From an uncultured bacterium (GTDB lineage Bacteria; Joyebacterota; Joyebacteria; Joyebacterales; Joyebacteraceae): a stretch of 64,000 nucleotides of DNA. Where the stretch lies: contig CAYNQF010000003.1 in assembly GCA_964399265.1 (NCBI GenBank), positions 3,104 through 67,103 on the forward strand. Direction: 5' to 3'. A model generated the notes under the pieces. It worked only from the letters and a program-made list of their open reading frames with translations, did no database searches and was not told the origin of the DNA. Shown here in pieces: positions 12,201-43,507 of the stretch; the first letter of the stretch is position 1; each line of letters opens with the position of its first letter. Both the position numbers and the translations under genes were made by a program.

Positions 12201-14083
12201 AGTTCCGGAGTTCTCTGCGAGGGAGCAGGCTCAAGCGCCTGCTCCCTCTGCTCTACCTGATACCGCTCGCCTACGTGGCATGGCCTATCTTCTGGGCCCC
12301 GCTCGACGCGCGTTTCTTCAACTATTTCCAGTCCAAACGTGCCGTGCGGCCGTGGACCGAGGTCGTCGTCGTAGGCATCGACAGGCCCACGCGCGAGCAG
12401 CTGTTTGACTCGCCGGTCTTCCCCCTGTCGAGGCACACCGACAAGCACGCGCGCATGGTAGAGATCCTGGACGCGGCCAATGCGCGCGCGATCGTGTTCG
12501 ACCTCGCTCTGGGGGCGGACACGTTCGACGCTCCCCCGACCAGGTTCGCCGAAGCCATCCGTAGGTCCGGCAAGGTATACCTCGTGATGTCGCTGCGCGA
12601 GGAGCGGAGGTCCGCGCGCTCCGGCGACACCGCCGTTCTGCTCACGGCCAGCCTGCCGGATTCGCTTCTCATGTCGGCGGCCCAGGGAGCGTTCGTGGCC
12701 GACGTGCAGACCGACTCTGACGGCACCGTGAGGAGGTTCGACAGGGACCCGAGGCTCACCAGGCTCGGCCTCGAGTCCCTGCCGGAGAGGCTGTCGGGCG
12801 TCGACGTGGAGGGCAGCGTACCCATCGAGTTCCCGTCGATGGATGTGACCATCCCCGTCGTGTCGTACATGGACGTCTACAACGAAGACCCCGAAGTGTT
12901 GTCGCTGATTGACGGGCGCATCGCGCTCGTGGGACTGGTCGACGACCCATCGACCGACTTCGTCACCGTCCCGAGACTCCAGGACATTGGTGGTGGCGTA
13001 GAGGCGTTCGGCCTGCCGGGCGTGGTCGTACTGGGAGCCATAACGGAGACATTGCTTCGGGGTGCGCCGCTACATGACGCCGCGTGGCCGCTGACGCTCG
13101 CGTGGATCATTATCTGGTGTGTGGCCTGCGTGCTCCTGATGTCCAAGCGCAGGCCGGCCCTGGCGGCGTTCACGGCGCTGGCCGTGATCGCCGCGTGTCT
13201 GGTGACGACGGGGTTCCTTCACGCCACGGCCGGCATCGTGCTGCCGAGTGGCCTGGTCCTGGGCGCGCTCCTCTTCTCGGCCTCGTTCGCTCTCGTGAGT
13301 AATCACGTTGAGACGACGAAGGAGCTTCACCTCGAGGCCGTCGAGAACGAGCGTGTACGGAAGGAACTGGAGACGGCGCGCCATACGCAAGAGCAGTTCC
13401 TGCCGGACGAGATCCCTCAGGTCGAGGGCCTGGACGTCTGGGGGATCAACGTGAGTTCTCTGGCCGTCTCGGGCGACTACTACGATGTGATCGACCTGGG
13501 CGGCGACGATGCGCTGGTCTTCACCATCGCGGACGTTTCGGGGAAGGGCCTGCCAGCGGCGCTCCTCATGTCGAACGTCCAGGCGGGGCTCCACTGCCAC
13601 ACGTTCCATCACGACTTCGACATCAAGGAAACGGCTGAGAACCTGAACAGCCTCGTCCACCGCAATACGGACGCCGGCAAGTTCGTGACTCTTTTCCTGG
13701 GTGAGATCGACAAGCGGACGCGTCTTCTCAAATACGTTCGCGCCGGGCACGACAACCCGATACTGGTCTCGAAGGACGGCGCTTGCCGCCAGCTGGAGGA
13801 GGGGAGCTTCGTGCTCGGGTTCATCCCCGAGGCCGAGTACGACGTAGCGGAGGAACAGCTCTCACCTGGGGACGTCCTCTGCCTGTACACCGACGGCGTT
13901 ACGGAGGCGCGCAATCAGGCCGACGAGGAGTTCGAACTCGACCGCGTCATCGAGGTCGTCACCGGGCATCGCGCCGAGTCGGCCGAGCAGATCGGGAGCG
14001 CGCTCCTCCAGGCGGTGCGCGATTTCTCGAAGCTCGAGTCCCAGGCCGACGACGTGACGCTCATCGTGATCAAGGTATGTTGA
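12197..14083 (+). CDS. CHASE2 sensor / transmembrane / PP2C (SpoIIE, RsbU-like) serine phosphatase
   Basis: GTG start overlaps the upstream stop (GTGA). N-terminal TM helix, then a CHASE2-like periplasmic domain (VVVGIDRPT...). Several TM helices, then a C-terminal PP2C region (SGDYYDVIDLGGD...ADVSGKG...LYTDGVTEA). Confidence 0.8.
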   Translation: MKFRSSLRGSRLKRLLPLLYLIPLAYVAWPIFWAPLDARFFNYFQSKRAVRPWTEVVVVGIDRPTREQLFDSPVFPLSRHTDKHARMVEILDAANARAIVFDLALGADTFDAPPTRFAEAIRRSGKVYLVMSLREERRSARSGDTAVLLTASLPDSLLMSAAQGAFVADVQTDSDGTVRRFDRDPRLTRLGLESLPERLSGVDVEGSVPIEFPSMDVTIPVVSYMDVYNEDPEVLSLIDGRIALVGLVDDPSTDFVTVPRLQDIGGGVEAFGLPGVVVLGAITETLLRGAPLHDAAWPLTLAWIIIWCVACVLLMSKRRPALAAFTALAVIAACLVTTGFLHATAGIVLPSGLVLGALLFSASFALVSNHVETTKELHLEAVENERVRKELETARHTQEQFLPDEIPQVEGLDVWGINVSSLAVSGDYYDVIDLGGDDALVFTIADVSGKGLPAALLMSNVQAGLHCHTFHHDFDIKETAENLNSLVHRNTDAGKFVTLFLGEIDKRTRLLKYVRAGHDNPILVSKDGACRQLEEGSFVLGFIPEAEYDVAEEQLSPGDVLCLYTDGVTEARNQADEEFELDRVIEVVTGHRAESAEQIGSALLQAVRDFSKLESQADDVTLIVIKVC

Positions 14084-24631: not shown

Positions 24632-26188
24632 CTAGTGGAGCACCACGACCCTGCGCGTCACCGTCTCGCCTCCTGCCATGAGCTTCACGAAATAGACCCC
24701 GGTCGGGACCTCTTCGCCGCTCCACTCGCTTTCATGCCGGCCCGGGCCCATCTCCTCGTTGATGAGCGTCGACATCTTCCTGCCGTTCGCGTCGTAGACC
24801 GCAAGATTGACGTGACCGGCCTGCGCGAGTTCGAAGGCCAGACGGACGCTCGTCTGCGTCGGATTCGGCGACGGCGGCATGAGTGCGATCGTGCGCCACG
24901 AGTCGCTCGGACTCGACTCGCCGACGCCTTCGGATCTCTCGGGTACCGGCCTGAGCGGCCTCCTCGGCCTCGGGCCGATGCTTCCGTTCCAGAGCCTGCT
25001 CCTGTGGCGGATGACCGCTGCCGCGGCGTTGGCGAGGAGTCCATCCAGCTTGTCGCCGCACACGTATGCTGCGTCGACGAACACCGACTCTCCGGGTTCG
25101 AGCGTTCCGAACGGTCCAACGGACATCATGAAGCGGCAGTCGGATGGCGTCGTGACGCCGGGGTCGATGATGCCGCTCCTGAGCATTCGGTATCTCTCGC
25201 GATCGTTGTCGGGATCGAGCGCGCCGTCCGACCAGATGCGGCACGCCGCCACGTCGGGCGGCGGAGACCCGGTGGCGCTGTGGTCGAGCAGGGCGATGCC
25301 GAACCATCCGTTCCAATCGCCGTCCGGCCCTCCGGGGGCGTCATGGGCGTGAGCGATCTTGACGCTCACCTGCTGCGACGACGAGTTCACTGGAACCGTA
25401 GCGTCGGCGAAACCGGACAGATCGTCCAGGTAATAGCCGTCGCTCGCCGCTCTGCCGATGTCGGGGTCGCACATGAGACCGACGTAAACGTCGTCGAGTG
25501 TCGCCTCTCCTATGTTGGTGATCTCGTAGCGGACGCCGACGAAGTTCTCGGCCGGACCCTCGCCCCACGCGAAGGACTGCACGTAGGCCTCGAGGCCCAT
25601 CGGAGAGGGCAGGTCCTGCGGATTGGGGTACTGGATCGTTACGGTGTCGAAGCACACGTATGTGAACATCTGCTCCGAGATCGCCGCGTAGTCCTCGTCG
25701 ATCAGGCCGTCCATGTCGTTGTCGAGGCCGTCGAGACGGTCCTCGTCCACACTGCCGTCGCCGTCGTCGTCGTAGTCCTTGATCCCGCCGGGGGCGCCCG
25801 CGTAGCTAGCATAGATCCTGTACGTCGAGTCGGCCCGCGGAGGGCTGAACTCCATCGCGAGAGCAGACGTCGACACCAGCGTGTCGCCGGCCGACCTGGC
25901 TCCGACCCAGAAGCCTCCGGCGAACAGGTGCTCGTAGCCGCTCGCGTACGGCCACTCACAGGACGGATCGCTCGAGGTTGCGTAGGTTCCGAAGAACCCC
26001 AGGTTGCACGTGTGAAGCCAGATGGCCCCCTCGTCGTGCCACCAGCCGTAGAAGTCGATGTCGCGGTCCGAGGCGCCGCGTGCGGCGTCCGGGAGAAAGG
26101 CCACAGCGTTGGGGGCTGCGAGGGCGAGGAGTACCGAAACGACGAAGACAACCACCACGGGTCTGCAGAGGCGGTCCGCGGACTTCAT
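24632..26188 (-). CDS. Secreted acidic (D-rich, Ca-binding-like) protein with a T9SS-type C-terminal sorting domain
   Basis: Signal peptide (MKSADRLCRPVVVVFVVSVLLALAAPNAVA). Asp-rich DYDDDGDGSVDEDRLDGLDNDMDG repeat. C-terminal ~80 aa match Por_Secre_tail-like (PNPTQTSVRLAFEL...VNLAVYDANGRKMSTL...SGEEVPTGVYFVKLMAG...RRVVVLH). Confidence 0.7.
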   Translation of the reverse strand: MKSADRLCRPVVVVFVVSVLLALAAPNAVAFLPDAARGASDRDIDFYGWWHDEGAIWLHTCNLGFFGTYATSSDPSCEWPYASGYEHLFAGGFWVGARSAGDTLVSTSALAMEFSPPRADSTYRIYASYAGAPGGIKDYDDDGDGSVDEDRLDGLDNDMDGLIDEDYAAISEQMFTYVCFDTVTIQYPNPQDLPSPMGLEAYVQSFAWGEGPAENFVGVRYEITNIGEATLDDVYVGLMCDPDIGRAASDGYYLDDLSGFADATVPVNSSSQQVSVKIAHAHDAPGGPDGDWNGWFGIALLDHSATGSPPPDVAACRIWSDGALDPDNDRERYRMLRSGIIDPGVTTPSDCRFMMSVGPFGTLEPGESVFVDAAYVCGDKLDGLLANAAAAVIRHRSRLWNGSIGPRPRRPLRPVPERSEGVGESSPSDSWRTIALMPPSPNPTQTSVRLAFELAQAGHVNLAVYDANGRKMSTLINEEMGPGRHESEWSGEEVPTGVYFVKLMAGGETVTRRVVVLH

Positions 26189-26490
26189 GGTCTGTCCCTT
26201 CCAGGGGGTCTTGCGGCAGTTCATCGGAGGAGGGGGTGAGGAGGACAATTCCATTGTTCGCTCCGAGCCGGCGTCCAGTCAAGGGGTTTCTGACGACCAT
26301 TTGGCTTGCAGCGCCTCAGGCGCCGGGGGGCATCTCCGCTCCTTGACTTTACACCCACTTCGGCCGGTGTTATCCTAGATTGCTCAATCGGCCCCGTGGG
26401 TGGGCCGATTCGGCACGTTTCCCCTTTGGATACAGGTGTCCTTTATCGGACGAGGCCGGTCGGCCCCAGACGAACGGAGGAAAGCACCAG

Positions 26491-28848
26491 ATGGCGATTC
26501 TCAATTCCAGGACCGGGAAGGTCCGCAAGGCGTATACGGTCGAGCAGCTCAGGGAGGCCGCGAACGAGATGCGGGGATACGACATGATATCCCTGTACGC
26601 CGCGGGCTCCGGCCACTCCGGCGGCACGCTTTCCATAATGGATATCACCGCGGCGCTCTACCTGCACGTCGCCGATCACGACCCGAAGGACCCGTTCTGG
26701 AAGGACCGCGATCGGATCATCTGGTCGGTCGGCCACAAGGCGCCGTCGCTCTATCTGGGCCTCGGCATGGCGGGCTTCTACGACGTCAAGGACGTCGTCA
26801 GGCTCCGCAAGCTGTACTCGCCTTACCAGGGCCACCCGCACTGGCTTAAGCTAGACGGCGTTGAGGCATCGACCGGCTCGCTGGGTCAGGGGTTGTCTAT
26901 CGCCGTCGGCATGGCTATGGCCGCCAATCTCAACAAGCAGGATCACCGAGTCTATTGCCTCATGGGGGACGGTGAGCAGCAGGAAGGTCAGGTCTGGGAA
27001 GCGGTGATGGAAGCAGGCCACTTCGGTCTCGACAATCTGTGCGCCGTCATCGACCGCAACCGCCTTCAGATCGACGGCTGGTGCTGTGATGTGATGAACG
27101 TCGAGCCGCTCGATGAGAAGTACCGTTCGTTCGACTGGCACGTCATCGAGTGCGACGGACACGACATGGCTGCACTGCTGGCCGCGTTCGAGGAAGCCAA
27201 GACCGTGAAAGGCAAGCCGACCGTCATCCTCGCCGCGACCGTGAAGGGCAAGGGCGTTGATTTCATGGAGGACGTTGCCGGCTGGCACGGCAAGACGCCG
27301 AACGAGGAGCAGATGTGGAGCGCCTTGAAGCAGCTGGGGCTCGACAAGAAACTCCCCGTCAAAGAGATGCTCAAGATCGCCGACGACTGGCAGAAGAAGG
27401 CGACGAAGACGCTCGAGGCCAAGCAGCCGAAGTTCTCGAAGGACTACTTCTGGAACGAGACCCCGAACATGAAGGTCGACATGGACCCGACCAGGAAGGG
27501 GTTCGGCCGGGCCCTCGCCGACAGGGGAGACGACGAGCGGGTCGTGTGCCTGGGCGCCGACATCTCGGGTTCGATCACCATCAGCCAGTTCCACGAGGGA
27601 CATCCCGAGCGGATGGACCGCTGGTTCTCGATCGGCATCGCCGAGCAGTCCGGGACGTGCGTGTGCGCCGGTCTGGCGAAGGAGGGCAAGCTACCCGTGT
27701 TCGGCACCTACGGTGTGTTCGCCTCGGGCCGCAACCTCGACCAGCTCCGCACGACAGTCTGCTACGGCGAGTTCAACGTGTTCATCGCCGGCGCTCACGG
27801 CGGCGTCTCCGTCGGTCCCGACGGCGCCACCCATCAGGCGCTCGAGGAGCTCTTCCAGATGTGCGGCCTCCCGAACATGAACGTGGAGGTTCCGTGCGAC
27901 GCGGTCGAGACGAAGCGGGCGAGCGAGTACCTGCTCTTCGACGTCAAGGGTCCCAAGTACGTGCGCTTCGCGCGCGAGGCCACTCCCATCGTGACCGACG
28001 AGAAGACGCCCTACGTCTTCGGAAAGGCCAACGTCATCAGGTTCCGCGGCGCCAAGCCGAACTTCAAGGACGCCTTCGAGCACACGCTCGCTTCGAAGTA
28101 CAAGAACGAGAACGAGGACATCTCCATCATCGCGTGTGGGCCGTCGGTCCCCGAGGCCATGCGCGCGGCCTGGATCCTCAAGGAAGAGCACGGCATCGAG
28201 ACGCGCATCCTGAACGTCCACACGGTCAAGCCGATGGACAGGGATGCCATCGTCCAGGCAGCCCGGGAGACCGGGCTCGTGGTTACCGCCGAGGAGCATC
28301 AGCGTGGTGGCTTCGGGAACCAGGTCGCCGCGGCCATAACCGGGTCGGACAAGGTCTACGGGACTCCGGTCGCGGTGGGAATGGTCGGCGTCCACGATCG
28401 CTTCGGTGAGTCGGGCGCGCCATGGGAGCTGGTGAAGGAATTCGAGGTCTCAGCGGAGCACATCGCCGTCGAGGCGAAGCGTCTGATAGACATGAGGAAG
28501 AAGAAGACACCGAAGGCGACGTCGGCGAAGAAGAAGGCCGCCAAGGTCCCGGCGCCCAAGACGGGAAAGGGCGCGGCCGGGAAGACGGCGAAGAAGGCTG
28601 CCAAGAGGGCGGTCAAGAAGACGGCGAAGAAGACCGCGAAGAAGGCTGCCAAGAAGACGGTGAAGAAGACCGCGAAGAAGGCTGCCAAGAAGGCGGTCAA
28701 GAAGACCGCGAAGAAGGCTGCCAAGAGGGCGGTCAAGAAGACCGTGAAGAAGGCGGTCCGGAAGACGGCCAGGAAGAAGCCCGCGCCGAAGAAGGTCAAG
28801 AGTGCGTCGAGGCGATCCGTCAAGAGGGCCGCGGCGAAGAAGCGCTAG
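26491..28848 (+). CDS. tkt: Transketolase (fused N- and C-terminal halves) with a ~120-aa histone H1-like KKAAKK-repeat C-terminal tail
   Basis: GSGHSGGTLSIMDITAALY TPP-binding N-domain, and pyrimidine-binding and C-terminal transketolase domains. The tail is KKKTPKATSAKKKAAKVPAPKTGKGAAGKTAKKAAKRAVKK(TAKKAAKKxVKK)n...AAAKKR. Confidence 0.85.
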   Translation: MAILNSRTGKVRKAYTVEQLREAANEMRGYDMISLYAAGSGHSGGTLSIMDITAALYLHVADHDPKDPFWKDRDRIIWSVGHKAPSLYLGLGMAGFYDVKDVVRLRKLYSPYQGHPHWLKLDGVEASTGSLGQGLSIAVGMAMAANLNKQDHRVYCLMGDGEQQEGQVWEAVMEAGHFGLDNLCAVIDRNRLQIDGWCCDVMNVEPLDEKYRSFDWHVIECDGHDMAALLAAFEEAKTVKGKPTVILAATVKGKGVDFMEDVAGWHGKTPNEEQMWSALKQLGLDKKLPVKEMLKIADDWQKKATKTLEAKQPKFSKDYFWNETPNMKVDMDPTRKGFGRALADRGDDERVVCLGADISGSITISQFHEGHPERMDRWFSIGIAEQSGTCVCAGLAKEGKLPVFGTYGVFASGRNLDQLRTTVCYGEFNVFIAGAHGGVSVGPDGATHQALEELFQMCGLPNMNVEVPCDAVETKRASEYLLFDVKGPKYVRFAREATPIVTDEKTPYVFGKANVIRFRGAKPNFKDAFEHTLASKYKNENEDISIIACGPSVPEAMRAAWILKEEHGIETRILNVHTVKPMDRDAIVQAARETGLVVTAEEHQRGGFGNQVAAAITGSDKVYGTPVAVGMVGVHDRFGESGAPWELVKEFEVSAEHIAVEAKRLIDMRKKKTPKATSAKKKAAKVPAPKTGKGAAGKTAKKAAKRAVKKTAKKTAKKAAKKTVKKTAKKAAKKAVKKTAKKAAKRAVKKTVKKAVRKTARKKPAPKKVKSASRRSVKRAAAKKR
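28600..28775 (+). repeat. About four tandem copies of a 36-bp repeat that encodes the 12-aa unit TAKKAAKK(T/A)VKK
   Basis: Direct repeats of the form aagaccgcgaagaaggctgccaagaag(g/a)cggt(c/g)aagaag, inside the transketolase 3' end. Confidence 0.6.
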
Positions 28849-30302
28849 CCGAGCTTTCCGCACCCCGGGACGTGCTTCATGAATGCGTCGATCGCCCTCG
28901 TGGCGCCCGGCACGTGCTGCTCGTCTGACAGCTTCAAGCTGATCGCAGTATACCGCCCGGACGCTTCGTCGAACGCGCTCTTCGGGAGCGAGACGCTCTC
29001 GACCTGGAACTTGGCTCCCGGGCTGAAGCACGGGCCGAACCCGGGCCCCAGCGTCAGCGTGAGCGACCTCTTTCCAATGCGCATCACGGCGAGCCGCCTG
29101 CCCCCGAACCACAGCGACAGCGAACGCTCGGACGTGCGCACCATGTCGCCCGCGATGCCGTACTCGTTCATGAAGTGCCGCACGACGCCGCGGAGTATCG
29201 CGCGCATCGGCCAACCGGTCAGTCGGTACTGCACGCTCTCGATCGCCGAATACGTCTCCCGGAGCGTGTCCGGCAGCAGATTGCGCATCACGAAGTCGCG
29301 CGCGTTCTCGCGCTGTGGGACACACGGTGCACGCTCGACCAGCAGGTCGGTCAGCGCATCGGCAGCTCTGGACGAATTCGCCCTCAAGGTCCGCCACATG
29401 GCGGACTCAAACGACTCTCCGGCATCCGAGAAGCCCCTCGCTCCGAGTTCGTAGACGACCGCGTCGGCGGGAACGATGAGGTCGTATCCCGATTCGCGGG
29501 CGACGTCGGCGATGCGCCCCACCGGAAGCATCGCGCTCGAGTCGTCCTGTCCCATCGACCGCGCGACCCTGCGCACGTCCGTGGCCAATCCCACCATTAC
29601 CTCGTCGGGTCCGTCGAGGTAGCCGAGGCACACGTCGCCGTCTATCTCACCGATGTCGTAGATCGCGACGCCGATGATGGCCTTGCGGTTCCTGACGACC
29701 AGGACGCGTCCCTGGCCCAGGAGCGAGCGCAGTCGCCTGCCAGTGAGCGCCGGGAACTTCCATCCCCTGGGACAGAGGCCGCCTGACGCGGTGAAGCACT
29801 CCGAGCCCCGCACGTAGCGGCGGACCTCCGCGGCCTCCGATGTCTCTGCCTTGCGTCCGGTCAGCGGCCCTTCCGGAAGCGACTTGCCCCAGAGCCAGTT
29901 GGCCCTCGCGACCATCCAGAAGCCCCGCAGCTCGCCCAGGTGCCTGGATGCCGCGTTCCCCGCGCCGGTCGAGTACCTGATGCTCGTGGGCTCAAGCCTC
30001 ATGGCCTCGCGGAAGGCCACCCTGTTGATCTGCTTCACGAGCCCTCTCCCGTGGAGATCGGGGTGGAGGCGAAGCCCCTCCAGCCAGACCTCGCCCGGTG
30101 CCAGGAGCGACACCTTGGACACGCCGACCGGGACGCCGTCAAGCGTCGCGGTCAAGAGGACTCCCTTGTCGTCGGCCAGCCATTTGTCCCAGACGAGCGG
30201 CAAGTAGTCGCTGCCACCCCATATGAGGGACGACATGGCCATCAGCGGTTCGCGGTCGGAGGCGCGGGCACGCCGCACCCTGAGTCTCAGGTCCCTGGGC
30301 AA
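28845..30302 (-). CDS. GNAT-family acetyltransferase fused to a ~300-aa uncharacterized C-terminal domain
   Basis: N-terminal ~150 aa look like an acetyltransferase (LRVRRARASDREPL...GRGLVKQINRVAF). TTG start with AGGAGC RBS. Its 3' end overlaps tkt convergently by 4 nt. Confidence 0.55.
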   Translation of the reverse strand: MPRDLRLRVRRARASDREPLMAMSSLIWGGSDYLPLVWDKWLADDKGVLLTATLDGVPVGVSKVSLLAPGEVWLEGLRLHPDLHGRGLVKQINRVAFREAMRLEPTSIRYSTGAGNAASRHLGELRGFWMVARANWLWGKSLPEGPLTGRKAETSEAAEVRRYVRGSECFTASGGLCPRGWKFPALTGRRLRSLLGQGRVLVVRNRKAIIGVAIYDIGEIDGDVCLGYLDGPDEVMVGLATDVRRVARSMGQDDSSAMLPVGRIADVARESGYDLIVPADAVVYELGARGFSDAGESFESAMWRTLRANSSRAADALTDLLVERAPCVPQRENARDFVMRNLLPDTLRETYSAIESVQYRLTGWPMRAILRGVVRHFMNEYGIAGDMVRTSERSLSLWFGGRRLAVMRIGKRSLTLTLGPGFGPCFSPGAKFQVESVSLPKSAFDEASGRYTAISLKLSDEQHVPGATRAIDAFMKHVPGCGKLG

Positions 30303-30837: not shown

Positions 30838-31293
30838 GTTGCCTCCTCGTCTCGGTGTCGCGGCGTCGCCACGCACGCCTTGGCCCGTCGTGCCCGCCCG
30901 TCGTCCGTCGGATCTCCCCCGACGGGGCTCGCGGAACACACTTCGGCCCCGCCGGACACGGAGATCCGCTGCCATGATCAGTCCAAAGGGGACGCGTCTG
31001 ATCACGCCGGTGCCGACGAGGCCTGCCTGAACGGGGTTGCAGAGATTGTACACGATGGGCGCCGGGCCCACAAGATGGGCGATTTCTGAGACTCGGGCCA
31101 CTATTCTTCCCCGGTCGTGCGCTCTGCCGACGGTGCTCCGTGGGCGACATCGGCTCCCGTTGTCCATTGGGTGTTTCAACATCACGGACTCTGGGTGTAT
31201 CTTAATATGTGTGTGACGAGCATGGGAGGTCGCCGAGCCTCCCTGGACGGTCTCCGCCCCCGAGGCCGACATCCCCCCGAGGAGAGCATCCAG

Positions 31294-34200
31294 ATGAGCA
31301 TGTCCGCGCGGAGCTTCCGGGTCCTGGCGTTGGTCATGGCGGCAGGCCTGTCCGCGACCGCGCACGCCGGCGTGGTCACCGAGCACTACGAGTTTCCCCC
31401 GCCCTCCATCACGTCAGAGGACGGATACGTCAGCGTGACGATGGACGACGCATGGAGCTTCGGGCATCCCGGCGATCCGGTTCTGCCCATGATGCCCGCG
31501 CGCCTTCTCCTCCCGCCTGGAGAGGTCGCCGTCGACGTCACGATCACGCCGGGCGACAAGGTGGAGATCGGTTCAGGCTACCTGGTCGCGCCGGGTCAGC
31601 GCCAGTATCCGCTCTCGTACGATGGACCTGTCGTGCGAGATGAGCCAGAGTACAGCCGGCGCGTCTCGTTCCCTGGGCGCCTCGGCGATCAACCGAGAAC
31701 GGGCTTCTTCCGAGGGCGGTCTATCGCCAGTTTCGCCCTGCATCCGGTCGAGTACGTGCCTTCCACCGGGACGCTCTGGTACTACAGGACGATGGACGTC
31801 ACCGTGACTACGGCGCCCGACGCCCGAGCGTCCAATGCCGCGAACAACATGGCGCGGCGTATAGAAGACACGGACAGTGAGCTCTCGCGCATGGTAGACA
31901 ACCCCGGCGCGCGTTCCAGATACCATTCCTACGAACAGGCTCACCCGCAGGGGTACGCGCTCGACCCGGACCCAGCGTACGACTACGTCGTCATCACGAC
32001 CGAGGCCTGGGACGACTACCTCGGCGACTTCGTCGACTACAAGACGAAGCGGGGCCTGAGGACGAAGGTCGTCCTGGCGTCGTGGATCTACGACAGATAC
32101 GAGGGGCGCGACGAGCAGGAGCAGATACGGGAGTTCATCAAGGACGCGTACCGGACGTGGGGAACGGAATACGTCCTCCTGGTCGGCGACACGCGGGACG
32201 AGAGTGGTATCCCTCACCGGGGCCTCTACGCCTCCGTGACCGACGGAGGCAACACCGACCCGGCGGGTGACGACGGCGAACGTCCGTACGCGGACGCCGA
32301 CATTCCCGCCGACATCTACTACGCGGCCCTGGACGGCAACTGGAACGACGACGGCGACGGCATGTGGGGGGAGCCCTCCGAGGCCGACCTGTATCCCGAG
32401 GTGGCCGTCGGCAGGGCATGCATCAACGAGTACTGGGAGCTCGAGAATCTCACGGACAAGGTCGCGCGTTACGAGGAGGCGCCGGTGGTCGCCGACTGCG
32501 ACGAGGCGCTGTTCGTCGGCGAGTATCTGTGGCCCGCCACGTACGGCGGTGACTACATGGACGAGATACTGTACGGCTCCAGCGAGAACGGGTACACGAC
32601 CGCAGGAATGCCGTCCTCGATGCACGCGCAGACGCTATACGAGAAGGATGGGGCGTGGGCATCCAGCACGCTCATGACCGTCATGAATGGCGGCGTCAAC
32701 ATCGTGAACCATCTCGGGCACTGCAACGAGCACTACGTGATGAAGATGACTCCTCTCGATATCTCGACCTTCACGAACGACGGGACCGAGAGAAGTCTGA
32801 ACTTCGTGTACAGCCAGGGCTGCTACGGCGGTTCGTTCGACAACATGTCGGTGGCCGGCTACTACACTTACGACTGCTTCGCGGAGCAGTTCGCCGTGGC
32901 CCGGTCTGGTGCCGCAGCGATGATCGCCAACTCACGCTACGGTTGGGGTGAGGAGGGCGGCACGAACGGATCCTCGCAGTACTACGATCGCGAGTTCTTC
33001 GACGCGATGTTCGCGGAGGGCATCTACCCCGTAGGCAAAGCCAACAACGACTCGAAGGCGGACGTCGTTTGGGCGATCAACTACGGTGCCAACCGGTGGT
33101 GTTGTTACGAGCTGAACCTCTTCGGCGACCCGTCCATGGAGCTGTGGACGGCCGAACCTACCGCGATGACGGTGGAGCATCCGACGCTCATTCTCACCGA
33201 CCAGGACGAGATGCAGGTGACCGTTCGAGGGTCTATGGGCGAACCGATCGAGGGCGCGCGCGTGGCGGTCTATACGGACGACGGGCGCGTCTACGACACC
33301 GGCGTGACCGGCGCTGAGGGCGAGGGAACCGTCCGGGCTGCGACGCCCGTGTCGGGCACGCTGCGGATGCGCGTCATGGCTCATGACCGCCTGGACTTCG
33401 ATGCTTTGGTACCGGTCATCTCGTCGACCGAACCGTATCTGAACCTGGCGGGAGACGTGCTGGACGACGACGCGTCGGGCGCGAGCAGTGGCAACGGTGA
33501 CGGCGTCGCTAACGCGGGCGAGACGCTCGAGATAACGGTGTCGGTCGAGAATCTTGGGGGAGGCCTGGCGAGTGCGGCGTCGGCGCAGCTCTCTTGTGAC
33601 AGTCCGTTCGTCGACATCATCGACGGATCGGTCGAGTTCGGCGACGTGGGCGCGTTCACCACCGTGGATGGTCTGATTCCGTTCGTTGTCCACATCGCCC
33701 CGGAGACACCGGACGGAGAGGTGCTTGAGTTCTCGCTCGCAGTCTCAGGCGCGTCGCGGCCCGAGTGGAACTACGCGTTCAGCGTGGACGTATCGGCCCC
33801 GGTGATCGCCTACGCGACCCACTTCCTGGACGATTCGCCGGAGGGTGGGAACGGGAATGGATGCCCCGAGGCGGGAGAGACCGTGTCGCTTGAGCTCGTG
33901 CTCTCGAACACGGGACGCGCCGACGCCACAGGACTGATCGTCTCCATCTCGACGACGAACCCGTTCGTTGCCGTCGACAGCGCGATGCTGTCGCGCTCGA
34001 CACTGGCGGCAGGGGAGACCGGGCCGCTCGACGGCGAGTATACGATCACGTTCCTGCCGGGATGCCCCGCCTCACTCGAGGTTGGCCTGGACATCGATGT
34101 GGAGGCCGACTGGGGGTATGAGGCGTCGGACGGGACCACCATCCTTACGGCGGGATCGGACATCATGGAGGACGTCGAGGGAGATCTATCGGTCTGGTTC

Positions 34201-35022
34201 CATGACGTTGCCACCGACGGTTCGGCGGACGCGTGGCACGTCGAGCCGACACGGGCCCATTCGGGGTCCTACAGCTGGAACTTCGGCGGTGACGGGCACG
34301 ACCTCTATCCTCCGTTGTCTGACGGGGCGCTGTACCTCGGCGCGTTCTGCCTGAGCGCAGGCGCCGAGCTGCGGTTCTGGGACTGGCTCAGCGCCGAGAC
34401 CGAGGGACCGACGACCGCGTGGGACTGCGCTCTCGTAGAGATCTCGACGGATCACGGAGTGACGTGGGACCTTCTCGAGCCGGTGGAAGGCTACACGCAC
34501 ACGAAGACCACGAATTCCGCCAACGCGATACCCGACGGAACGCCGTGCTGGTCCGGCATGCACGACTGGCGCGAGGAGGTCTTCGATCTGTCGTCATACG
34601 TGGGTGAGAACGCGATGTTCAGATTCAGGTTCGGCTCCGATGACGCGTTCGAGATGGAGGGGTGGTACGTCGACGACGTGTCGCTCACGTTCGACGCGTC
34701 GGTTGCCCCACAGCCGACGACAGCTGGTGGCCTCGGGCTGCCGGTCGCCTTCGCGCTGCGCCAGAATGCGCCGAACCCGTTCAATCCGGTCACGACCATA
34801 AGGTATGAGTTGCCCACGGATTCGGACGTTCGAATCGACGTCTACAACGTGGCGGGCAGGCACGTGCGCACAGTGGTCGATGGACCCGTTGCGGCCGGCT
34901 ACAACGAGGTGGTCTGGGACGGCAGGGACAACTCGGGGAAGAGGGTGGCGAGCGGCGTTTATCTCTACAGGATGTCCGCGGGCGACTTCGAGTCGAAGAA
35001 GATGATGGTTGTGCTCAAGTAG
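31294..35022 (+). CDS. Giant secreted C25 (gingipain-like) cysteine peptidase with Ig-like domains, a MAM-like domain and a T9SS C-terminal sorting domain (paralog 1, 1242 aa)
   Basis: GAGGAG RBS and signal peptide (MSMSARSFRVLALVMAAGLSATAHA). C25-like core with candidate His (VNHLGHCNEHY) and Cys (VYSQGCYGGSFD). C-terminal Por_Secre_tail (NAPNPFNPVTTIRYELP...VYLYRM...KKMMVVLK). Confidence 0.75.
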   Translation: MSMSARSFRVLALVMAAGLSATAHAGVVTEHYEFPPPSITSEDGYVSVTMDDAWSFGHPGDPVLPMMPARLLLPPGEVAVDVTITPGDKVEIGSGYLVAPGQRQYPLSYDGPVVRDEPEYSRRVSFPGRLGDQPRTGFFRGRSIASFALHPVEYVPSTGTLWYYRTMDVTVTTAPDARASNAANNMARRIEDTDSELSRMVDNPGARSRYHSYEQAHPQGYALDPDPAYDYVVITTEAWDDYLGDFVDYKTKRGLRTKVVLASWIYDRYEGRDEQEQIREFIKDAYRTWGTEYVLLVGDTRDESGIPHRGLYASVTDGGNTDPAGDDGERPYADADIPADIYYAALDGNWNDDGDGMWGEPSEADLYPEVAVGRACINEYWELENLTDKVARYEEAPVVADCDEALFVGEYLWPATYGGDYMDEILYGSSENGYTTAGMPSSMHAQTLYEKDGAWASSTLMTVMNGGVNIVNHLGHCNEHYVMKMTPLDISTFTNDGTERSLNFVYSQGCYGGSFDNMSVAGYYTYDCFAEQFAVARSGAAAMIANSRYGWGEEGGTNGSSQYYDREFFDAMFAEGIYPVGKANNDSKADVVWAINYGANRWCCYELNLFGDPSMELWTAEPTAMTVEHPTLILTDQDEMQVTVRGSMGEPIEGARVAVYTDDGRVYDTGVTGAEGEGTVRAATPVSGTLRMRVMAHDRLDFDALVPVISSTEPYLNLAGDVLDDDASGASSGNGDGVANAGETLEITVSVENLGGGLASAASAQLSCDSPFVDIIDGSVEFGDVGAFTTVDGLIPFVVHIAPETPDGEVLEFSLAVSGASRPEWNYAFSVDVSAPVIAYATHFLDDSPEGGNGNGCPEAGETVSLELVLSNTGRADATGLIVSISTTNPFVAVDSAMLSRSTLAAGETGPLDGEYTITFLPGCPASLEVGLDIDVEADWGYEASDGTTILTAGSDIMEDVEGDLSVWFHDVATDGSADAWHVEPTRAHSGSYSWNFGGDGHDLYPPLSDGALYLGAFCLSAGAELRFWDWLSAETEGPTTAWDCALVEISTDHGVTWDLLEPVEGYTHTKTTNSANAIPDGTPCWSGMHDWREEVFDLSSYVGENAMFRFRFGSDDAFEMEGWYVDDVSLTFDASVAPQPTTAGGLGLPVAFALRQNAPNPFNPVTTIRYELPTDSDVRIDVYNVAGRHVRTVVDGPVAAGYNEVVWDGRDNSGKRVASGVYLYRMSAGDFESKKMMVVLK

Positions 35023-36181: not shown

Positions 36182-39100
36182 ATGAGACAGACGTCGAGCA
36201 CTCCGAGGGCCCTTCTGGCCGCTTTGGCGGTCCTGGTCTTGCTGTTTGCCGGAAGCGCGGCTGCGGGAGTCACGACCCAGCACTACGAGTTCGCGGAGCC
36301 GGTCGTGACGGAGGCCGGCGGGTACGCCCACGTGGAGATGGACGGCGCCACGACCTACGGTGAGCCGGGCAAGCCGGCCCTGCCGGTCACGGGCGCGAGC
36401 ATCCTTCTGCCACCGGGAGAGGAACTGGTGAGCGTGAGGGTGGTCCCTGGTGAGAAGGTCACGCTCCCGGGCAGCTACCTGGTCGAACCCGGGCAGAGGC
36501 AGTATCCGCTTTCGTACGCGGGCCCTGTGGAGCGGTACTCGGCCGATTACGCCGGGCTGGGCGCCTACCCTTCCGAGAGGAACGGCGGCTCGACCTTCGG
36601 ATTCTACAGAGGACACGGTATTGCCAGCGTGTCTCTTCTGCCGGTCGAGTACGACGCGGAGTCCGGCCGGATCTCTTACTACTCGAGCATGGACGTCGAG
36701 ATAGAGAGCGCACCGACGGAGAAGGCGGCGCGCACCGCCGAGCGCATGATCCGCGTCGACGCCGGAACTAACGCGACGCTAACGCGCATCGTCGACAACT
36801 CCCCACGAAAGACCCTCTATAACGCGATAGACAGGGTGAGGCCGCTCAGCCGGTCGCTCGATCCTTCACTCGACTACAAGTATGTCATCATAACGACGAG
36901 TTCGTGGGACGACTATCTCACCGACTTCGCGGAGTTCGAGACACAGCGCGGCTACAAGGCGGGCATCTTCCTGCGTTCGTGGATCTCGTCGAACTACGCC
37001 GGTGACGACGACCAGATGAAGATCAGGAACTTCATCATAGATGCGTACGACACGTGGGACATCGACTACGTGCTTCTGGTCGGCGACGCGCGCGATGCCA
37101 ACGGCATCCCGCACCGAGGTATGTGGAACGATGCCTACGGCGAGTATGAGGACGACCTGCCGGCCGATGTCTACTACTCCAGCCTGGACGGCAACTGGAA
37201 CACCGACGGTGACAATCTCTGGGGCGAGTACAGCCCCGAGGAAGCCGACCTCTATCCCGAGGTTGCAATCGGCCGCGTCTGCGCGGACGACGTCGCCGGC
37301 GTGCAGAACTTCGTCACGAAGACGATGCGCTACGTCGACTCGCCGGTCGTGGGAGAGTGCGACGAGGCGTTGATGGTTGGGGAGCTTCTCTGGTCCAGCC
37401 CGCTAACCTACGGCGGAACGTACATGGACGAGGTGATGAACGGCTCGTCCGCCAACGGCTACACGACCGTAGGATTCCCCGGCACGATGAACATGGACAC
37501 GCTATACGATCGCGACGGGACGTGGAGCTACTCGACGCTCATTAGCATGATGGAGAGCGGCCTCAACATCGTGAATCACCTGGGGCACAGCAACACGACG
37601 TACGCGATGAAGATGGACACGGGCGACATTCCATCGTTCGATAACGACGGCACGACCCACACGCTCAACTTCGTCTACAGCCAGGGTTGCTACTGCGGTG
37701 CATTCGACGACAGGGACACGTACGGCAGCTACGGCAGCGACTGTTTCGCCGAACAGTTCACGACGGACGACGACGGTGCCGTGGCGGTCATCATGAACTC
37801 GCGCTACGGCTGGGGCGACCCGGGTGGAACGAACGGATCGTCGCAGTACTTCAACCGGGAGTTCTTCGACGCGATGTTCTCCGAGGGCATCTACACTCTG
37901 GGCGAGGCGAACGACGACTCCAAGGTCGACGCTCTCTGGGCGATCACCTACGGCGCCAATCGCTGGTGTCATTACGAGCTGAACCTGTTCGGCGATCCGG
38001 CGCTTGAGCCGTGGACGGCCGAGCCGACGGCGCTCACCGTGAACCACCCGTCGACGATCATGGTCGACCAGCCGGACATGGAGTTTGTCGTTACCGACGG
38101 CCGCGCGGCGGTTGCCGGAGCCCGTGTGACCATCTGGACCGACGACTACTCGGTCTACGACACGGGACTCACCGACGCGCAAGGTGAGGTGACCGTACAT
38201 CCCAGCGCGGGGTCAGAGGGCACGCTCAACATCAAGGTCCATGCTCACGACCATCTCACGTGGGGCGGCACCGTTGCGGTCACGCCCGCCAGCGGGGCGT
38301 ACGTCGTCCTGGAGGACTACGTCGTCGATGACGACCAGAGCGGCGAGAGCAGCGGAAACGGCAACGCGATCGTCAACGCCGGCGAAGACGTCGAGCTCGT
38401 GGTCACTCTCGAGAACGTCCTTGTCGATGACGCCTACGGGGTAACTGCTACGCTCTCGACGAGCAGCAGCAGAGTGTCGATTACGGACGACTACGAGGAA
38501 TACGGGGACATACCGGCCCTGGCGTCGGCACAGTGTCTGGATGACTACAATCTGACGATATCGTCCGACACGCCCGACGGCGAAGTGATACCGCTCACAC
38601 TGACGGTGACCGATGCAACGCGGAGCACTTGGGAGTCGGACTTCACCATCACGGTCGCGTCCCCGGTAGTGGAGTACGCCGACCATTCGTCCGACGACCC
38701 GCCGTACGGCGGCAATGGAAGCGGCTGCCTTGAGGCCGGCGAGACGGTGGTGCTGAGCCTGTCACTCACGAACTCCGGGAGCGCCGGAGCGACCGGCGTG
38801 ACGGCCACCATTTCGAGCACGGACCCGTACGTTCAGATCAACGACGACTCGGCCGCCATCTCCTCGCTCGGGTCCGGGTCCACACAGGCGGTGTCTCCCG
38901 ACTTCTCGGTGACCCTCCTGCCCACTTGTCCGGAGCTGCACGAGATCATCTTCGATGTCGCCGTTACGGCGGATTGGGGATACTCCGCGTCGCACCAGTT
39001 CAGCATGCTCTCGGGAGGCGCCCCGTTCACCGACGACGTCGAGCAAGGCGAAGGAAAGTGGACGCACGGGGTGGTTACACCGAGCTTCGGTGACGAGTGG

Positions 39101-39877
39101 CACGTGGACACGTATCGCTACCACACGAGCGGCCACAGCTGGAAGTGCGGTGGGTCCGGATCGCTTGACTACGGCGACTCGAACGACGGCGCACTGGTCA
39201 TGAGGCCAATGTGCATAGGTGCGAACGGCGTGTTCTCGTTCTGGCACTGGATGGACGCCGAGGAGGAGGGCTCGACGTCGGCCTGGGACTGCGGATTCCT
39301 TCAGATCTCCACCGACGGCGGGGACACCTGGAGTGTTCTCTACCCGGACGGCGGCTACAGCCACACGAAGAACACCAACTCGGCCAACCCTGTGCCCGAG
39401 GGAACGCCGTGCTGGTCCGGCACGTTCAGCTGGACACAGGAGACCTGCGATCTCTCGGCCTATGCGGGCCAGACCATTGAGATCCGCTTCAGGTTCGCCT
39501 CGGACGGGTACGTTACCGGCGAGGGTTGGTACATCGATGACATCGACCTGACCTTCGATGCCGGAGGAACGTCCGGCCTGGAGGAAGGCGAGGTCCCGGC
39601 GGTCTTCGCGCTCAGGCAGAACGTGCCCAACCCGTTCAACCCCGTCACGGTGATATCCTACCAGCTGCCGCAGGCCGGACACGTCAAGCTCGACGTCTAC
39701 AACGTGGCCGGCAAGCTCGTGACGACGCTCGTCGACGAGGCGCAGCAGCCCGGTTTGAAGTCGGTGACGTGGGACGGGACCGACGCGAAGGGCAACAAGG
39801 TCGCGAGCGGCGTCTATCTGTACAGAATCGAGGCCGGAGACGACGTGGCCAAGAAGATGATGGTGTTGCTGAAGTAG
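36182..39877 (+). CDS. Giant secreted C25 (gingipain-like) cysteine peptidase with a T9SS C-terminal sorting domain (paralog 2, 1231 aa)
   Basis: GGGAGGAGAG RBS and signal peptide. Same architecture as paralog 1 (VNHLGHSNTTY, VYSQGCYCGAFD). C-terminal NVPNPFNPVTVISYQLP...VYLYRI...KKMMVLLK. Confidence 0.75.
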   Translation: MRQTSSTPRALLAALAVLVLLFAGSAAAGVTTQHYEFAEPVVTEAGGYAHVEMDGATTYGEPGKPALPVTGASILLPPGEELVSVRVVPGEKVTLPGSYLVEPGQRQYPLSYAGPVERYSADYAGLGAYPSERNGGSTFGFYRGHGIASVSLLPVEYDAESGRISYYSSMDVEIESAPTEKAARTAERMIRVDAGTNATLTRIVDNSPRKTLYNAIDRVRPLSRSLDPSLDYKYVIITTSSWDDYLTDFAEFETQRGYKAGIFLRSWISSNYAGDDDQMKIRNFIIDAYDTWDIDYVLLVGDARDANGIPHRGMWNDAYGEYEDDLPADVYYSSLDGNWNTDGDNLWGEYSPEEADLYPEVAIGRVCADDVAGVQNFVTKTMRYVDSPVVGECDEALMVGELLWSSPLTYGGTYMDEVMNGSSANGYTTVGFPGTMNMDTLYDRDGTWSYSTLISMMESGLNIVNHLGHSNTTYAMKMDTGDIPSFDNDGTTHTLNFVYSQGCYCGAFDDRDTYGSYGSDCFAEQFTTDDDGAVAVIMNSRYGWGDPGGTNGSSQYFNREFFDAMFSEGIYTLGEANDDSKVDALWAITYGANRWCHYELNLFGDPALEPWTAEPTALTVNHPSTIMVDQPDMEFVVTDGRAAVAGARVTIWTDDYSVYDTGLTDAQGEVTVHPSAGSEGTLNIKVHAHDHLTWGGTVAVTPASGAYVVLEDYVVDDDQSGESSGNGNAIVNAGEDVELVVTLENVLVDDAYGVTATLSTSSSRVSITDDYEEYGDIPALASAQCLDDYNLTISSDTPDGEVIPLTLTVTDATRSTWESDFTITVASPVVEYADHSSDDPPYGGNGSGCLEAGETVVLSLSLTNSGSAGATGVTATISSTDPYVQINDDSAAISSLGSGSTQAVSPDFSVTLLPTCPELHEIIFDVAVTADWGYSASHQFSMLSGGAPFTDDVEQGEGKWTHGVVTPSFGDEWHVDTYRYHTSGHSWKCGGSGSLDYGDSNDGALVMRPMCIGANGVFSFWHWMDAEEEGSTSAWDCGFLQISTDGGDTWSVLYPDGGYSHTKNTNSANPVPEGTPCWSGTFSWTQETCDLSAYAGQTIEIRFRFASDGYVTGEGWYIDDIDLTFDAGGTSGLEEGEVPAVFALRQNVPNPFNPVTVISYQLPQAGHVKLDVYNVAGKLVTTLVDEAQQPGLKSVTWDGTDAKGNKVASGVYLYRIEAGDDVAKKMMVLLK

Positions 39878-42298: not shown

Positions 42299-43405
42299 CT
42301 AGTCGAGCGTGAACTTCCCGTCCTTGTAGACCACCTTCCCGTCGGCGTAGATCTTGCCGCCGTCGCGCATGTCGGTGACCATGTCCCAATGGATGGCCGA
42401 CTCGTTCACTCCGAGCGACTCTGGAATCGACGCCCCCATGGCCATGTGGACGGTGCCGCCGATCTTCTCGTCGAAGAGCGTGTTACGGGTGAACTTCTGT
42501 ACCGAATAGTTGGTGCCGATGGCGAACTCTCCGACTCGCTTGGCCCCGTCATCCGTGTTGAGCATGGCCTCGAGGAAGTCCTGGCCCTTTGAGGCCGTGG
42601 CCTTGACGATACGGCCCTTCTTGAACGTAAGCCGGACTCCCTCGGCCTCCCTTCCGTAGTAGAAGGCGGGGAAGGAGAACGTGATCGAGCCCTCGACCGA
42701 GTCCTCGACGGGTCCCGTGAAGATCTCGCCGTCCGGCATGTTCGCCTTGCCGTCGCAGTTGACCCACTTGCGTCCAGCGACCTTCATCGTGAGGTCGGTC
42801 CCCTTCGTCACAACGCGGACCTTCCTGGCGTGGTCGAGACGCTTGCAGATCCTCGCCTGCTTGCGATGCACCGACTTCCAGGCGGCTATTGGGTCCTTCT
42901 TGTTCACAAGACAGGCGTCCAGGACGAAGTTCTCGTACTCCGGGAGCGACATCTCGGCATCCTGGGCGCTCGCATTGGTCGGGAACTGCGTCCCCACCCA
43001 CTTGAGCTCTCCGGCGGCCTCACGCTCGTTCCACCGCCTCATTATCGGCGCGGTGGCACTCGCGCGCTCCCGCTGCCTGTCCGGGTCGACGTTGGCCAGA
43101 TCCTTGGTGTTCTCGTCGGCCCAGAACGAGATGAACTTGTCCGTCTTCTCTACTTCCTCCATGGCGACGGGGCTCAGGAATCTGAGCTGATCCTTTCTGG
43201 CCTCCTTGAGGAATATCTCGGAGATCCCGGGCAGGTGGCACCTGACGAACGGATGACCGCCGGCCTTCAGGCATTCCCTGTAGACCTCCTTCGTCAGAAG
43301 CTCGGCCACCGGGTACGTCTGTATGGCCACCAGATCTCCCTTCCCGACCTCGACCGAGTAGTTCACAAGCACCTTCGCGAGCGCTTCGTATCTCGGGTCT
43401 CTCAC
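42299..43405 (-). CDS. Aminopeptidase, M29 family (AmpS/aminopeptidase T-like), paralog A
   Basis: Homologous along its whole length to the downstream gene. Start at GTG 43405 with GGAG RBS. The longer ORF-track N-terminus has no homology to the paralog. Confidence 0.7.
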   Translation of the reverse strand: MRDPRYEALAKVLVNYSVEVGKGDLVAIQTYPVAELLTKEVYRECLKAGGHPFVRCHLPGISEIFLKEARKDQLRFLSPVAMEEVEKTDKFISFWADENTKDLANVDPDRQRERASATAPIMRRWNEREAAGELKWVGTQFPTNASAQDAEMSLPEYENFVLDACLVNKKDPIAAWKSVHRKQARICKRLDHARKVRVVTKGTDLTMKVAGRKWVNCDGKANMPDGEIFTGPVEDSVEGSITFSFPAFYYGREAEGVRLTFKKGRIVKATASKGQDFLEAMLNTDDGAKRVGEFAIGTNYSVQKFTRNTLFDEKIGGTVHMAMGASIPESLGVNESAIHWDMVTDMRDGGKIYADGKVVYKDGKFTLD

Positions 43406-43507
43406 CTGGATCTCCTCACTGCAGTGGCGGCTGCGCTCCGACTCTGATGATGGCACGGACGGACGACTATGTCCGATGGGCATGCCGCTCAGCGCGGCGC
43501 CCGGGTT

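Follow-up and report, generated by a model that had tools for sequence, protein, structure and literature searches.

The gene at positions 26491-28848 of the DNA stretch analyzed here (64,000 nucleotides of contig CAYNQF010000003.1, assembly GCA_964399265.1, from an uncultured bacterium; called the window throughout) encodes a transketolase that continues, in frame, into a lysine-rich tail of 118 residues without a single acidic one. This architecture is real and lineage-wide. Across the relatives, the sequence of the tail turns over fast while its charge is held, and that the tail is not only real but also selected is considered very likely. As to its role, tethering of the enzyme to polyanions of the cell, be it nucleoid DNA, RNA, or polyphosphate, would explain the observations best and is regarded as fairly probable.

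The transketolase and its tail

The open reading frame (ORF) extends on the + strand from 26380 (TTG) or 26491 (ATG) to 28848. The ATG is taken as the start codon because GGAGG precedes it and because the N-termini of homologues align to it without offset. The gene and its parts are as follows.

26476-26480, + strand: Shine-Dalgarno sequence GGAGG, 10 nt 5′ of the start codon (direct reading of the sequence)
26491-28848, + strand: complete gene for transketolase with lysine-rich tail, 785 aa, stop codon TAG at 28846-28848 (ORF list; exact match to the public protein P0001)
26491-28491, + strand: transketolase body, residues 1-667 (Pfam; NCBIfam NF004559; PDB matches)
28492-28845, + strand: polycationic low-complexity tail, residues 668-785, 118 aa, net charge +55, no Asp or Glu (composition; AlphaFold2; codon use; orthologous tails)
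28582-28777, + strand: tandem array, 5.4 copies of a 36-bp unit encoding the 12-aa unit KTVKKTAKKAAK, with a 12-nt 'xxKK' sub-period (Tandem Repeats Finder [TRF] score 245)

The first-pass annotation of this DNA had described a full-length transketolase with an in-frame, H1/AlgP-like repeat tail rich in lysine and alanine, and this description was borne out by a single ORF with an end-to-end family match. All three Pfam domains scored above their gathering thresholds (Transketolase_N, PF00456, residues 22-312; Transket_pyr, PF02779, 334-498; Transketolase_C, PF02780, 536-658). The NCBIfam equivalog NF004559 gave 648.2 bits against a cut-off of 488 and aligned positions 4-625 of its 627 to residues 6-667, which is why the end of the enzyme body, previously put at ∼665, is now placed at ∼667. 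The PDB alignment extends to residue 666; the best matches were human transketolase (6rjb/4kxu; E ∼1e-89) and the split transketolase of Carboxydothermus (6yak/6yaj). Compared with human 6rjb, the thiamine diphosphate (ThDP) and catalytic motifs GH, GDGE...N, WHGK, IAEQ, and HGGVSVGPDGATHQ are kept, as is the H-GVS-G-DG motif, and the cofactor and catalytic residues are invariant in an alignment of 44 sequences. Score, three-domain architecture, the GDG...N site for ThDP and metal, and the catalytic His and Glu were all found as in human/split-type transketolases (EC 2.2.1.1, NF004559). Judged from its sequence, the body looks like a catalytically intact, cytoplasmic enzyme of this type.

The tail consists of 46 K, 30 A, 11 T, 9 R, 9 V, 5 P, 4 S, 3 G, and 1 M, amounting to a net charge of +55 as opposed to −16 for the enzyme body of the window. 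Lysine makes up 39% of it, versus ∼1.5% expected from the base composition of the window, and no comparable K-rich tract was found in any other ORF of the 64 kb. TRF reported 88% matches and 0% indels across the 36-bp array; the underlying period is 12 nt (4 aa), and the tail holds 16 'KKxx' units. The first-pass annotation had recognized the tail and the 36-bp unit correctly; its length of 120 aa had to be corrected to 118 by composition analysis, and its ∼four repeats at 28600-28775 extend, according to TRF, over the larger region given above. GC content at third codon positions (GC3) was 0.93 in the tail frame and 0.88 in the body, and the lysine codons were AAG in 46 cases and AAA in none, which is consistent with coding, though these statistics are partly a product of the composition itself.

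In the AlphaFold2 model, the last helix of the enzyme (residues 655-672) runs into the tail, and residues 673-785 are modeled as coil without secondary structure at a pLDDT of ∼40-46; the tail is therefore predicted to be intrinsically disordered. The positions of K and R are not those of an amphipathic helix (resultant 0.11 at 100 degrees). Two shadow ORFs lie over the tail repeat, one on the − strand (28356-28823; 155 aa, rich in F, L, and A) and one on the + strand (28422-28928; 168 aa, rich in E, G, and D). They are explained by the AAG/GCN repeat, which opens the other frames automatically, and could mislead gene callers.

The tail is present throughout the lineage

The tail is not peculiar to this gene. 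In the first-pass annotation, a look at orthologous transketolases in relatives had been proposed; this was done by a homologue search and a genome scan, and both showed the tail to be present throughout this transketolase lineage. All 48 of the closest proteins in the homologue search (77-91% body identity) ended in a basic tail of 11-182 aa; the named members among them were all 'Candidatus Eisenbacteria'. Relatives with an identity of 74% or lower mostly end 4-14 residues past the enzyme; among them are members of KSB1, WOR-3, Edwardsbacteria, Chloroflexota, and Dehalococcoidales. The genome scan, restricted to one genome per species, yielded 77 transketolase loci. Every scanned locus with at least 77% body identity carried a tail (31-182 aa), 22 of the 22 loci of the main clade, to which the window belongs, were tailed, and so were seven more distant loci, including one on a closed chromosome (CP070702; 100-aa tail). 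No true K-rich tail was found among the 150 distant transketolase representatives listed; the library of representatives is uninformative on tails, as the whole clade collapses in it into one untailed representative at 50% identity (P0121).

The close locus L004 is from a member of 'Candidatus Effluviviaceae'; the same metagenome-assembled genome (MAG) had earlier been labeled Eisenbacteria. The Effluviviaceae group is now proposed as the phylum Effluviviacota, which shares a common root with Eisenbacteria and Latescibacterota. As hosts of the tailed enzyme, it is therefore best to name several related candidate phyla taken together. Lineage-wide retention of the tail, with conserved charge (see below), argues for a function, although the first-pass annotation had listed commonness of the tail as a refutation.

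Some tails of relatives showed features of their own. Within the tail of the orthologous transketolase at L011, a run of N (X in translation) is present at ∼12210-12330, which indicates that the coding repeats break or mask assemblies and that the tail lengths in MAGs may be underestimates. P0266 (482 aa) is a transketolase fragment, with a match into query residues 506-749, whose C-terminus is rich in R and P (REGKARRGRRHRPRP...); this C-terminus resembles the +1 frame of a K-rich tail and may represent a frameshifted allele or a sequencing error in the repeat. In one subclade (P0015, P0039, and L011), the first ∼45 tail residues form a mixed-charge, E/R/K/A-rich, helical-looking linker, for example EAERAERAARKAEREIERAAAKAAREA, which may act as a rigid spacer between the enzyme and the K-rich repeats.

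Tail sequence turns over while charge is held

Nearly every orthologous tail has a tandem repeat of its own, with copies matching up to 98% and with periods of 12, 15, 21, 24, 30, 33, 36, 42, 51, 54, 81, 87, or 102 nt. Length variation of the tandem repeat, as anticipated in the first-pass annotation, was indeed observed, the evidence coming from relatives of the window allele rather than from variants of the same population. P0287 corresponds to P0006, P0288, and P0289 plus an exact internal duplication of 34 aa, at an identity of 1.00 over the last 300 body residues compared; likewise, P0297 corresponds to P0293 minus 33 aa. The tails of P0002 and P0286 measure 90 and 111 aa, respectively, at 98% body identity, and a single 90%-identity cluster holds tails of 10, 35, 53, and 54 aa.

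In contrast to the sequence, the charge of the tails varied little. In 26 tails of 31-182 aa, the fraction of K+R was 0.457 ± 0.052 and that of D+E 0.006, K/(K+R) ranging from 0.41 to 0.94 (these charge statistics ignore kinship among the sequences). In close pairs with tails of equal length, tail identity was 72-95% versus 91-100% for the body, while net charge differed by 0-2. Basic sites in close pairs (n = 164) were unchanged in 142 cases, swapped between K and R in 15, and lost in 7; among the non-basic sites (n = 218), two became basic and none acidic. The sequence of the tail turns over fast while its charge is held, a pattern which suggests that charge density is selected and not sequence.

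Two other influences on tail or body charge were considered and rejected. Replacement of K by R driven by higher GC content found no support (Spearman rho +0.37, p = 0.06), the sign of the correlation being opposite to that expected. Compensation of the tail by a more acidic enzyme body was contradicted by the opposite trend: body net charge was −5.8 in tailed and −16.9 in untailed loci (Mann-Whitney p ∼8e-7; kinship ignored), a comparison confounded by phylogeny. The tailed genomes were also more GC-rich than the untailed ones (mean 0.63 versus 0.54, again with kinship ignored).

Origin of the tails

In a neighbor-joining tree of the enzyme bodies, calculated with a simple distance model and 200 bootstraps, the tailed enzymes fell into three groups: the main clade with 22 sequences including that of the window, a second group consisting of L067, L043, L042, and L039, and a third consisting of L020, L045, and L033. 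Each group was recovered in 200/200 bootstraps, their union in 0/200. The main clade paired with untailed Dehalococcoidia-type enzymes (149/200), and group 3 paired with untailed sequences, too (179/200). The junctions follow the same pattern: tails of the main clade open with LKVAK or LKMKK, where their untailed sisters end in LKLSRG or LKARRKK, and tails of groups 2 and 3 open with FAKRK or FAKKK, where their untailed sisters end in FAKK or FARK. The existence of three separate tailed groups, together with junctions that match those of the respective untailed sisters, points to repeated gain. From these sequences, it appears likely that a short basic C-terminus, which is common in the subfamily, was elongated independently in related hosts; the alternative to repeated gain would be gene transfer plus loss. 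Another candidate origin, fusion with a downstream H1-like gene, was rejected, as no stand-alone K-rich ORF of at least 80 aa was found near untailed transketolases (shorter ORFs lay outside this check).

Comparison with known polycationic tails

When the tail of the window was compared with the H1-like models of Pfam and NCBIfam (PF07382, NF038052, and NF038053), no match was obtained at E ≤ 1. Three orthologous tails matched Hc2/H1-like models, but below the cut-offs; the best of them, that of P0025, reached 34.5 bits versus 40 (PF07382) and 24-34 bits versus 80 (NF038053). KPAA, KPVA, SPKK, TPKK, PAKKA, and AT-hook motifs are all absent from the tail of the window, and only 5 of its 118 residues are proline. 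Without a match to an H1-like model and without KPAA, SPKK, or PAKKA motifs, the tail is not a member of the Hc1/Hc2/AlgP families, to whose proteins the first-pass annotation had likened it. Going by its sequence, the tail is to be likened to those of Hc2, AlgP, and H1 by composition, not counted as a family member.

The eukaryotic linker histone H1 ends in a C-terminal domain of ∼100 aa which is ∼40% lysine, rich in alanine, disordered, and acts by charge, not sequence. The tail resembles this domain in composition and predicted disorder; it differs in that it lacks S/TPKK, contains little proline, and is attached to an enzyme. A further likeness exists to chlamydial Hc2 (PF07382/NF038052) and the Burkholderia-type H1-like proteins (NF038053), namely in composition and in a size that varies with the number of lysine-rich repeats, as described for Hc2 (PMC2848022). 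Hc2, however, is a stand-alone nucleoid protein and not an enzyme appendage, and the window tail, as said, gives no match to its model.

Similar in arrangement are the lysine repeats of actinobacteria, i.e., the TopA C-terminal domain of Streptomyces and Mycobacterium, HupS/HupB, and the PAKKA tail of Ku, which are likewise C-terminal, K/A/T-rich add-ons to a conventional protein in a GC-rich genome. The general lysine-repeat pattern of Strzalka et al, 2017 (1-3 K/R separated by 2-9 neutral residues, three or more repeats, a length of 17 aa or more, and K and A at no less than 10% each; PMC5714199), applied as a regular expression, matched the 99 aa from tail residue 3 to 101, in which K accounts for 42% and A for 26%. 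The strict motif K1-2(A/T/N)3-5 had no tandem match in the tail, where the spacing is KK followed by two neutral residues. Charge is thus denser here than in the actinobacterial repeats (K1-2 plus 3-5), the host protein is an enzyme of central metabolism without a nucleic acid substrate, and the lineage is that of Eisenbacteria/Effluviviacota-type MAGs. Actinobacterial lysine repeats add nonspecific DNA affinity (PMC5714199; PMC3553676): those of TopA stabilize the enzyme-DNA complex (PMC5714199), and the PAKKA tail of Ku modulates DNA binding (PMC3553676). Of the 554 Streptomyces proteins reported to contain lysine repeats, 175 carried an annotation as DNA-binding and 379 did not; the repeats were proposed to be a typical trait of genomes rich in GC (PMC5714199).

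AlgP and PhaF of Pseudomonas also have a disordered, H1-like polycationic repeat tail, and the net charge of +55 of AlgP equals that of the tail described here. Such tails localize a non-histone N-terminal domain to polyphosphate or polyhydroxyalkanoate granules and the nucleoid, or, in PhaF, to RNA (PMC9239181; PMC12818456). The KPAA domain of AlgP is needed for the spacing of polyphosphate granules, and peptides derived from it bind DNA (PMC9239181); the homologous repeat region of PhaF is disordered and binds RNA (PMC12818456). The repeat region of AlgP is a mutational hot spot, which resembles the repeat turnover of the transketolase tail. Unlike in AlgP and PhaF, there is not one KPAA unit in the tail, proline is scarce, and the partner is an enzyme instead of a granule-binding or helical domain.

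The statement of the first-pass annotation that no such tail was known on a central-metabolic enzyme is probably too strong. Residues 668-783 aligned weakly (E 0.0096, 15 bits), and driven by composition, to positions 216-329 of the 335 of the adenylate kinase model PRK13808 (NF010381). NF010381 is a curated model of a metabolic enzyme, and its C-terminal ∼115 columns suggest, as a lead only, a precedent for a K/A-rich extension; furthermore, the 379 of 554 Streptomyces lysine-repeat proteins mentioned above lack an annotation as DNA-binding. For transketolase itself, a link to the nucleoid exists in Escherichia coli, where TktA was reportedly implicated as a factor in chromosome structure by Hardy and Cozzarelli in 2005. 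A further paper, which cites that study, names TktA together with H-NS, HU, and Fis among the proteins that might form chromosome loops (PMC2972204). Unlike the transketolase described here, TktA has no basic tail and is of the other (long) type. No literature linking Eisenbacteria with transketolase, or on transketolase tails, was found.

Specificity and gene neighborhood

Within the DNA examined, the tail is specific to transketolase: in 546 kb from tailed genomes (∼209 kb non-redundant at the nucleotide level), no low-complexity K-rich tracts other than the transketolase tails were found. A database search with the tail alone returned 15 weak matches, all to small K-rich proteins ('histone', SWIB-domain, and helix-turn-helix proteins), a search limited by composition correction, and a metagenome scan produced more than 600 8-mer matches and returned two loci, one encoding a membrane protein with a K-rich N-terminus and the other an all-basic protein of 124 aa; neither shows how common tailed enzymes are.

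Upstream of tkt, the window encodes HflX, a hybrid histidine kinase, a LEA_2 protein, and a protein sorted by the type IX secretion system (T9SS); downstream, it encodes a tandem-GNAT protein, Bcp, two C25 peptidases, a trehalose phosphatase, Usp, MscS, and two M29 peptidases. A pentose-phosphate operon is not among these neighbors. The T9SS-sorted protein (24632-26254, − strand) has 540 aa. The C25 peptidases (31117-35019 and 36182-39874, both + strand; 1301 and 1231 aa) are gingipain-like paralogues, each with an InhA-like MAM domain and an FlgD_ig-type C-terminal sorting domain; together with the T9SS-sorted protein, they suggest a secreted proteolytic lifestyle. The M29 peptidases (42302-43483 and 43511-44611, both − strand) are tandem paralogues of the thermophilic metalloprotease/aminopeptidase type (profile E ∼1e-92 each).

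The immediate neighbor of tkt, given here as context only, is the GNAT gene, with which it converges.

28845-30302, − strand: tandem-GNAT acetyltransferase, 485 aa, convergent neighbor (Pfam Acetyltransf_1; AlphaFold2; Foldseek)
28845-28848, no strand: palindromic CTAG supplying both convergent stop codons, TAG of tkt (+) and TAG of the GNAT gene (−) (sequence; ORF coordinates)

The GNAT gene adjoins tkt in 19 tailed loci; next to the tkt genes of tailed groups 2 and 3 it is missing. In a homologue search with the GNAT protein, the family comprised ∼120 clusters and was found only in this lineage, all named members being labeled Eisenbacteria. The AlphaFold2 model of the GNAT protein (pLDDT 94) has a tandem-GNAT fold according to Foldseek, followed by an additional C-terminal domain of helices and beta strands (residues ∼300-485) to which the PDB matches do not extend. 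Its nearest structures were mostly small-molecule acetyltransferases (for histidine, glucosamine, and mycothiol), and Eis scored low (TM 0.30). In group 2, the convergent downstream gene (adjoining tkt at L042, 12348-14903, − strand, and at L067, 12306-14834, − strand) encodes not a GNAT but a protein of ∼845 aa with a basic N-terminus; the neighborhood hence differs between independently tailed groups.

Discussion

The observations would be accounted for if a short basic C-terminus had been elongated into a disordered polycationic tail of 118 residues with a period-4 'xxKK' pattern, adding +55 per subunit and hence ∼+110 per dimer. Such a tail would grow and shrink through in-frame slippage of the tandem DNA repeats, selection maintaining its charge density rather than its sequence. 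By analogy to the KPAA tails of AlgP and PhaF, the lysine repeats of actinobacteria, and the C-terminal domain of H1, it would serve as a nonspecific electrostatic tether that holds the transketolase dimer on polyanions, in the first place nucleoid DNA, or else RNA and ribosomes or polyphosphate granules, and the two tails of a dimer could bridge or condense such polyanions. On these analogies, binding to polyanions of some kind seems reasonably likely, and nucleoid DNA in particular is named as the partner only tentatively. A more far-reaching version appears unlikely: in it, the transketolase of these related candidate phyla would have become, in two or three independent events, an abundant protein associated with the nucleoid, RNA, or polyphosphate. 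It would double as a bivalent polycationic component of chromatin or condensates and physically link the pentose-phosphate pathway with the condition of the nucleoid.

Several points weigh against a tether. Why transketolase, of all enzymes, should be held on the nucleoid is not obvious, and no nucleoid or polyphosphate genes are present near tkt in the window. The tail does not match the H1-like models. Length is constrained very loosely (10-182 aa), and some relatives within 90%-identity clusters have only 10-11 residues, so that certain populations can do without a long tail. Beyond the neighboring DNA that was scanned, these proteomes may contain further proteins with such tails. Finally, the simplicity of the distance model behind the tree and the disregard of kinship in the charge statistics both count on this side.

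Among the rival explanations, an artefact, i.e., a frameshift, a missed stop codon, or an assembly chimera joining transketolase to a separate K-rich ORF, is so improbable that it can practically be set aside. It is true that repeats are hard to assemble, as the run of N in the L011 tail illustrates, and that the alternative frames across the tail are open as well. A break at ∼28,480, as envisaged in the first-pass annotation, is nevertheless excluded as far as assemblies allow: the same in-frame fusion is found in more than 70 independent assemblies (NCBI, JGI, ENA, and Logan), and errors of this kind would not be shared by dozens of them. Moreover, no stand-alone K-rich ORF of the size checked lies near untailed transketolases, and the tail begins straight from the last helix of the enzyme in the AlphaFold2 model. 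The main rival, considered rather unlikely, is that of a near-neutral repeat, a slippage-prone, AAG-rich 3′ end whose in-frame expansions are tolerated at a solvent-exposed C-terminus and yield a tail without function. In its favor are tail lengths of 10-182 aa, repeat units that differ between nearly all orthologues, indel polymorphism between enzymes identical over the last 300 body residues compared, and tails of 10-11 aa in some close relatives; the short K/R-rich ends of untailed relatives could seed the slippage, and repeat units in multiples of 3 keep the frame automatically. Against it, all members of the three separate clades have kept the tail in spite of their deep divergence, with a narrow charge density, virtually no acidic residues, and charge-preserving swaps between K and R. 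Lysine richness is, in addition, upheld against a GC background of 65%, and no comparable expansion was seen in the many untailed lineages with equally basic C-termini, or in any neighboring gene.

The tail might also be functional without binding nucleic acids, as an entropic bristle, as a tag for solubility or stability, as a driver of self-association or condensation with the acidic body, or as an anchor to anionic membrane lipids. This is deemed improbable, somewhat more so than a repeat without function. It would fit the predicted disorder, the opposite charges of body (−16) and tail (+55) in the window, the lack of the DNA-binding motifs SPKK, KPAA, and AT-hook, and the absence of nucleoid-related neighbors of tkt. 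Yet a stretch that is 47% K/R and free of acidic residues would be expected to bind nucleic acids and polyphosphate in any cytoplasm unless shielded. Tailed bodies are, moreover, less acidic than untailed ones (−5.8 versus −16.9), giving no sign of intramolecular charge compensation, and the basic residues are not placed as in an amphipathic helix. An acetylation switch, in which the convergent tandem-GNAT would acetylate lysines of the tail and thereby tune its charge, as in Streptomyces HupS, is a weak lead and very improbable. It is prompted by the position of the GNAT gene immediately downstream in 19 tailed loci, by the confinement of the family to this lineage in the homologue search, and by the finding that deacetylation by CobB1 raises the affinity of HupS for DNA in Streptomyces (PMC11229371). 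The convergent orientation, however, precludes co-transcription, the gene also adjoins transketolases whose tail has only 10-11 aa, to judge by contigs of equal length (5118, 11042, and 48329), and in groups 2 and 3 it is not the neighbor of tkt. The closest structures, being mostly enzymes for small molecules, with Eis at a TM of 0.30, speak against it as well; homologue search, structure prediction, and fold search gave no specific support for the GNAT as tail acetyltransferase.

A polyanion tether thus stays the preferred reading. Polycationic, H1-like tails as such are already known as polyanion-binding add-ons on nucleoid proteins, topoisomerase, Ku, and granule proteins; what is added here is a polycationic lysine-repeat tail on a central-metabolic enzyme, probably gained convergently. 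For annotation, the repeat causes assembly gaps and shadow ORFs, and errors in tail length are to be expected. Beyond that, these enzymes provide a clean natural example of a disordered region selected for composition over sequence, in which proteins that are otherwise identical differ visibly in repeat number. If the tail does bind polyanions, one more enzyme would join the components of bacterial chromatin or condensates, and a simple fusion tag would be available for tethering enzymes to nucleic acids or polyphosphate. If a role of this transketolase in the nucleoid holds true, it would have a counterpart in E. coli, where TktA shows an unexplained genetic connection with chromosome structure. 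The presence of such a tail on transketolase suggests that, in bacteria not cultured so far, the spatial organization of an enzyme of central metabolism is deliberate, and the case for it is strengthened by a tail which is lineage-wide, apparently gained more than once, conserved in charge, and free-running in sequence.

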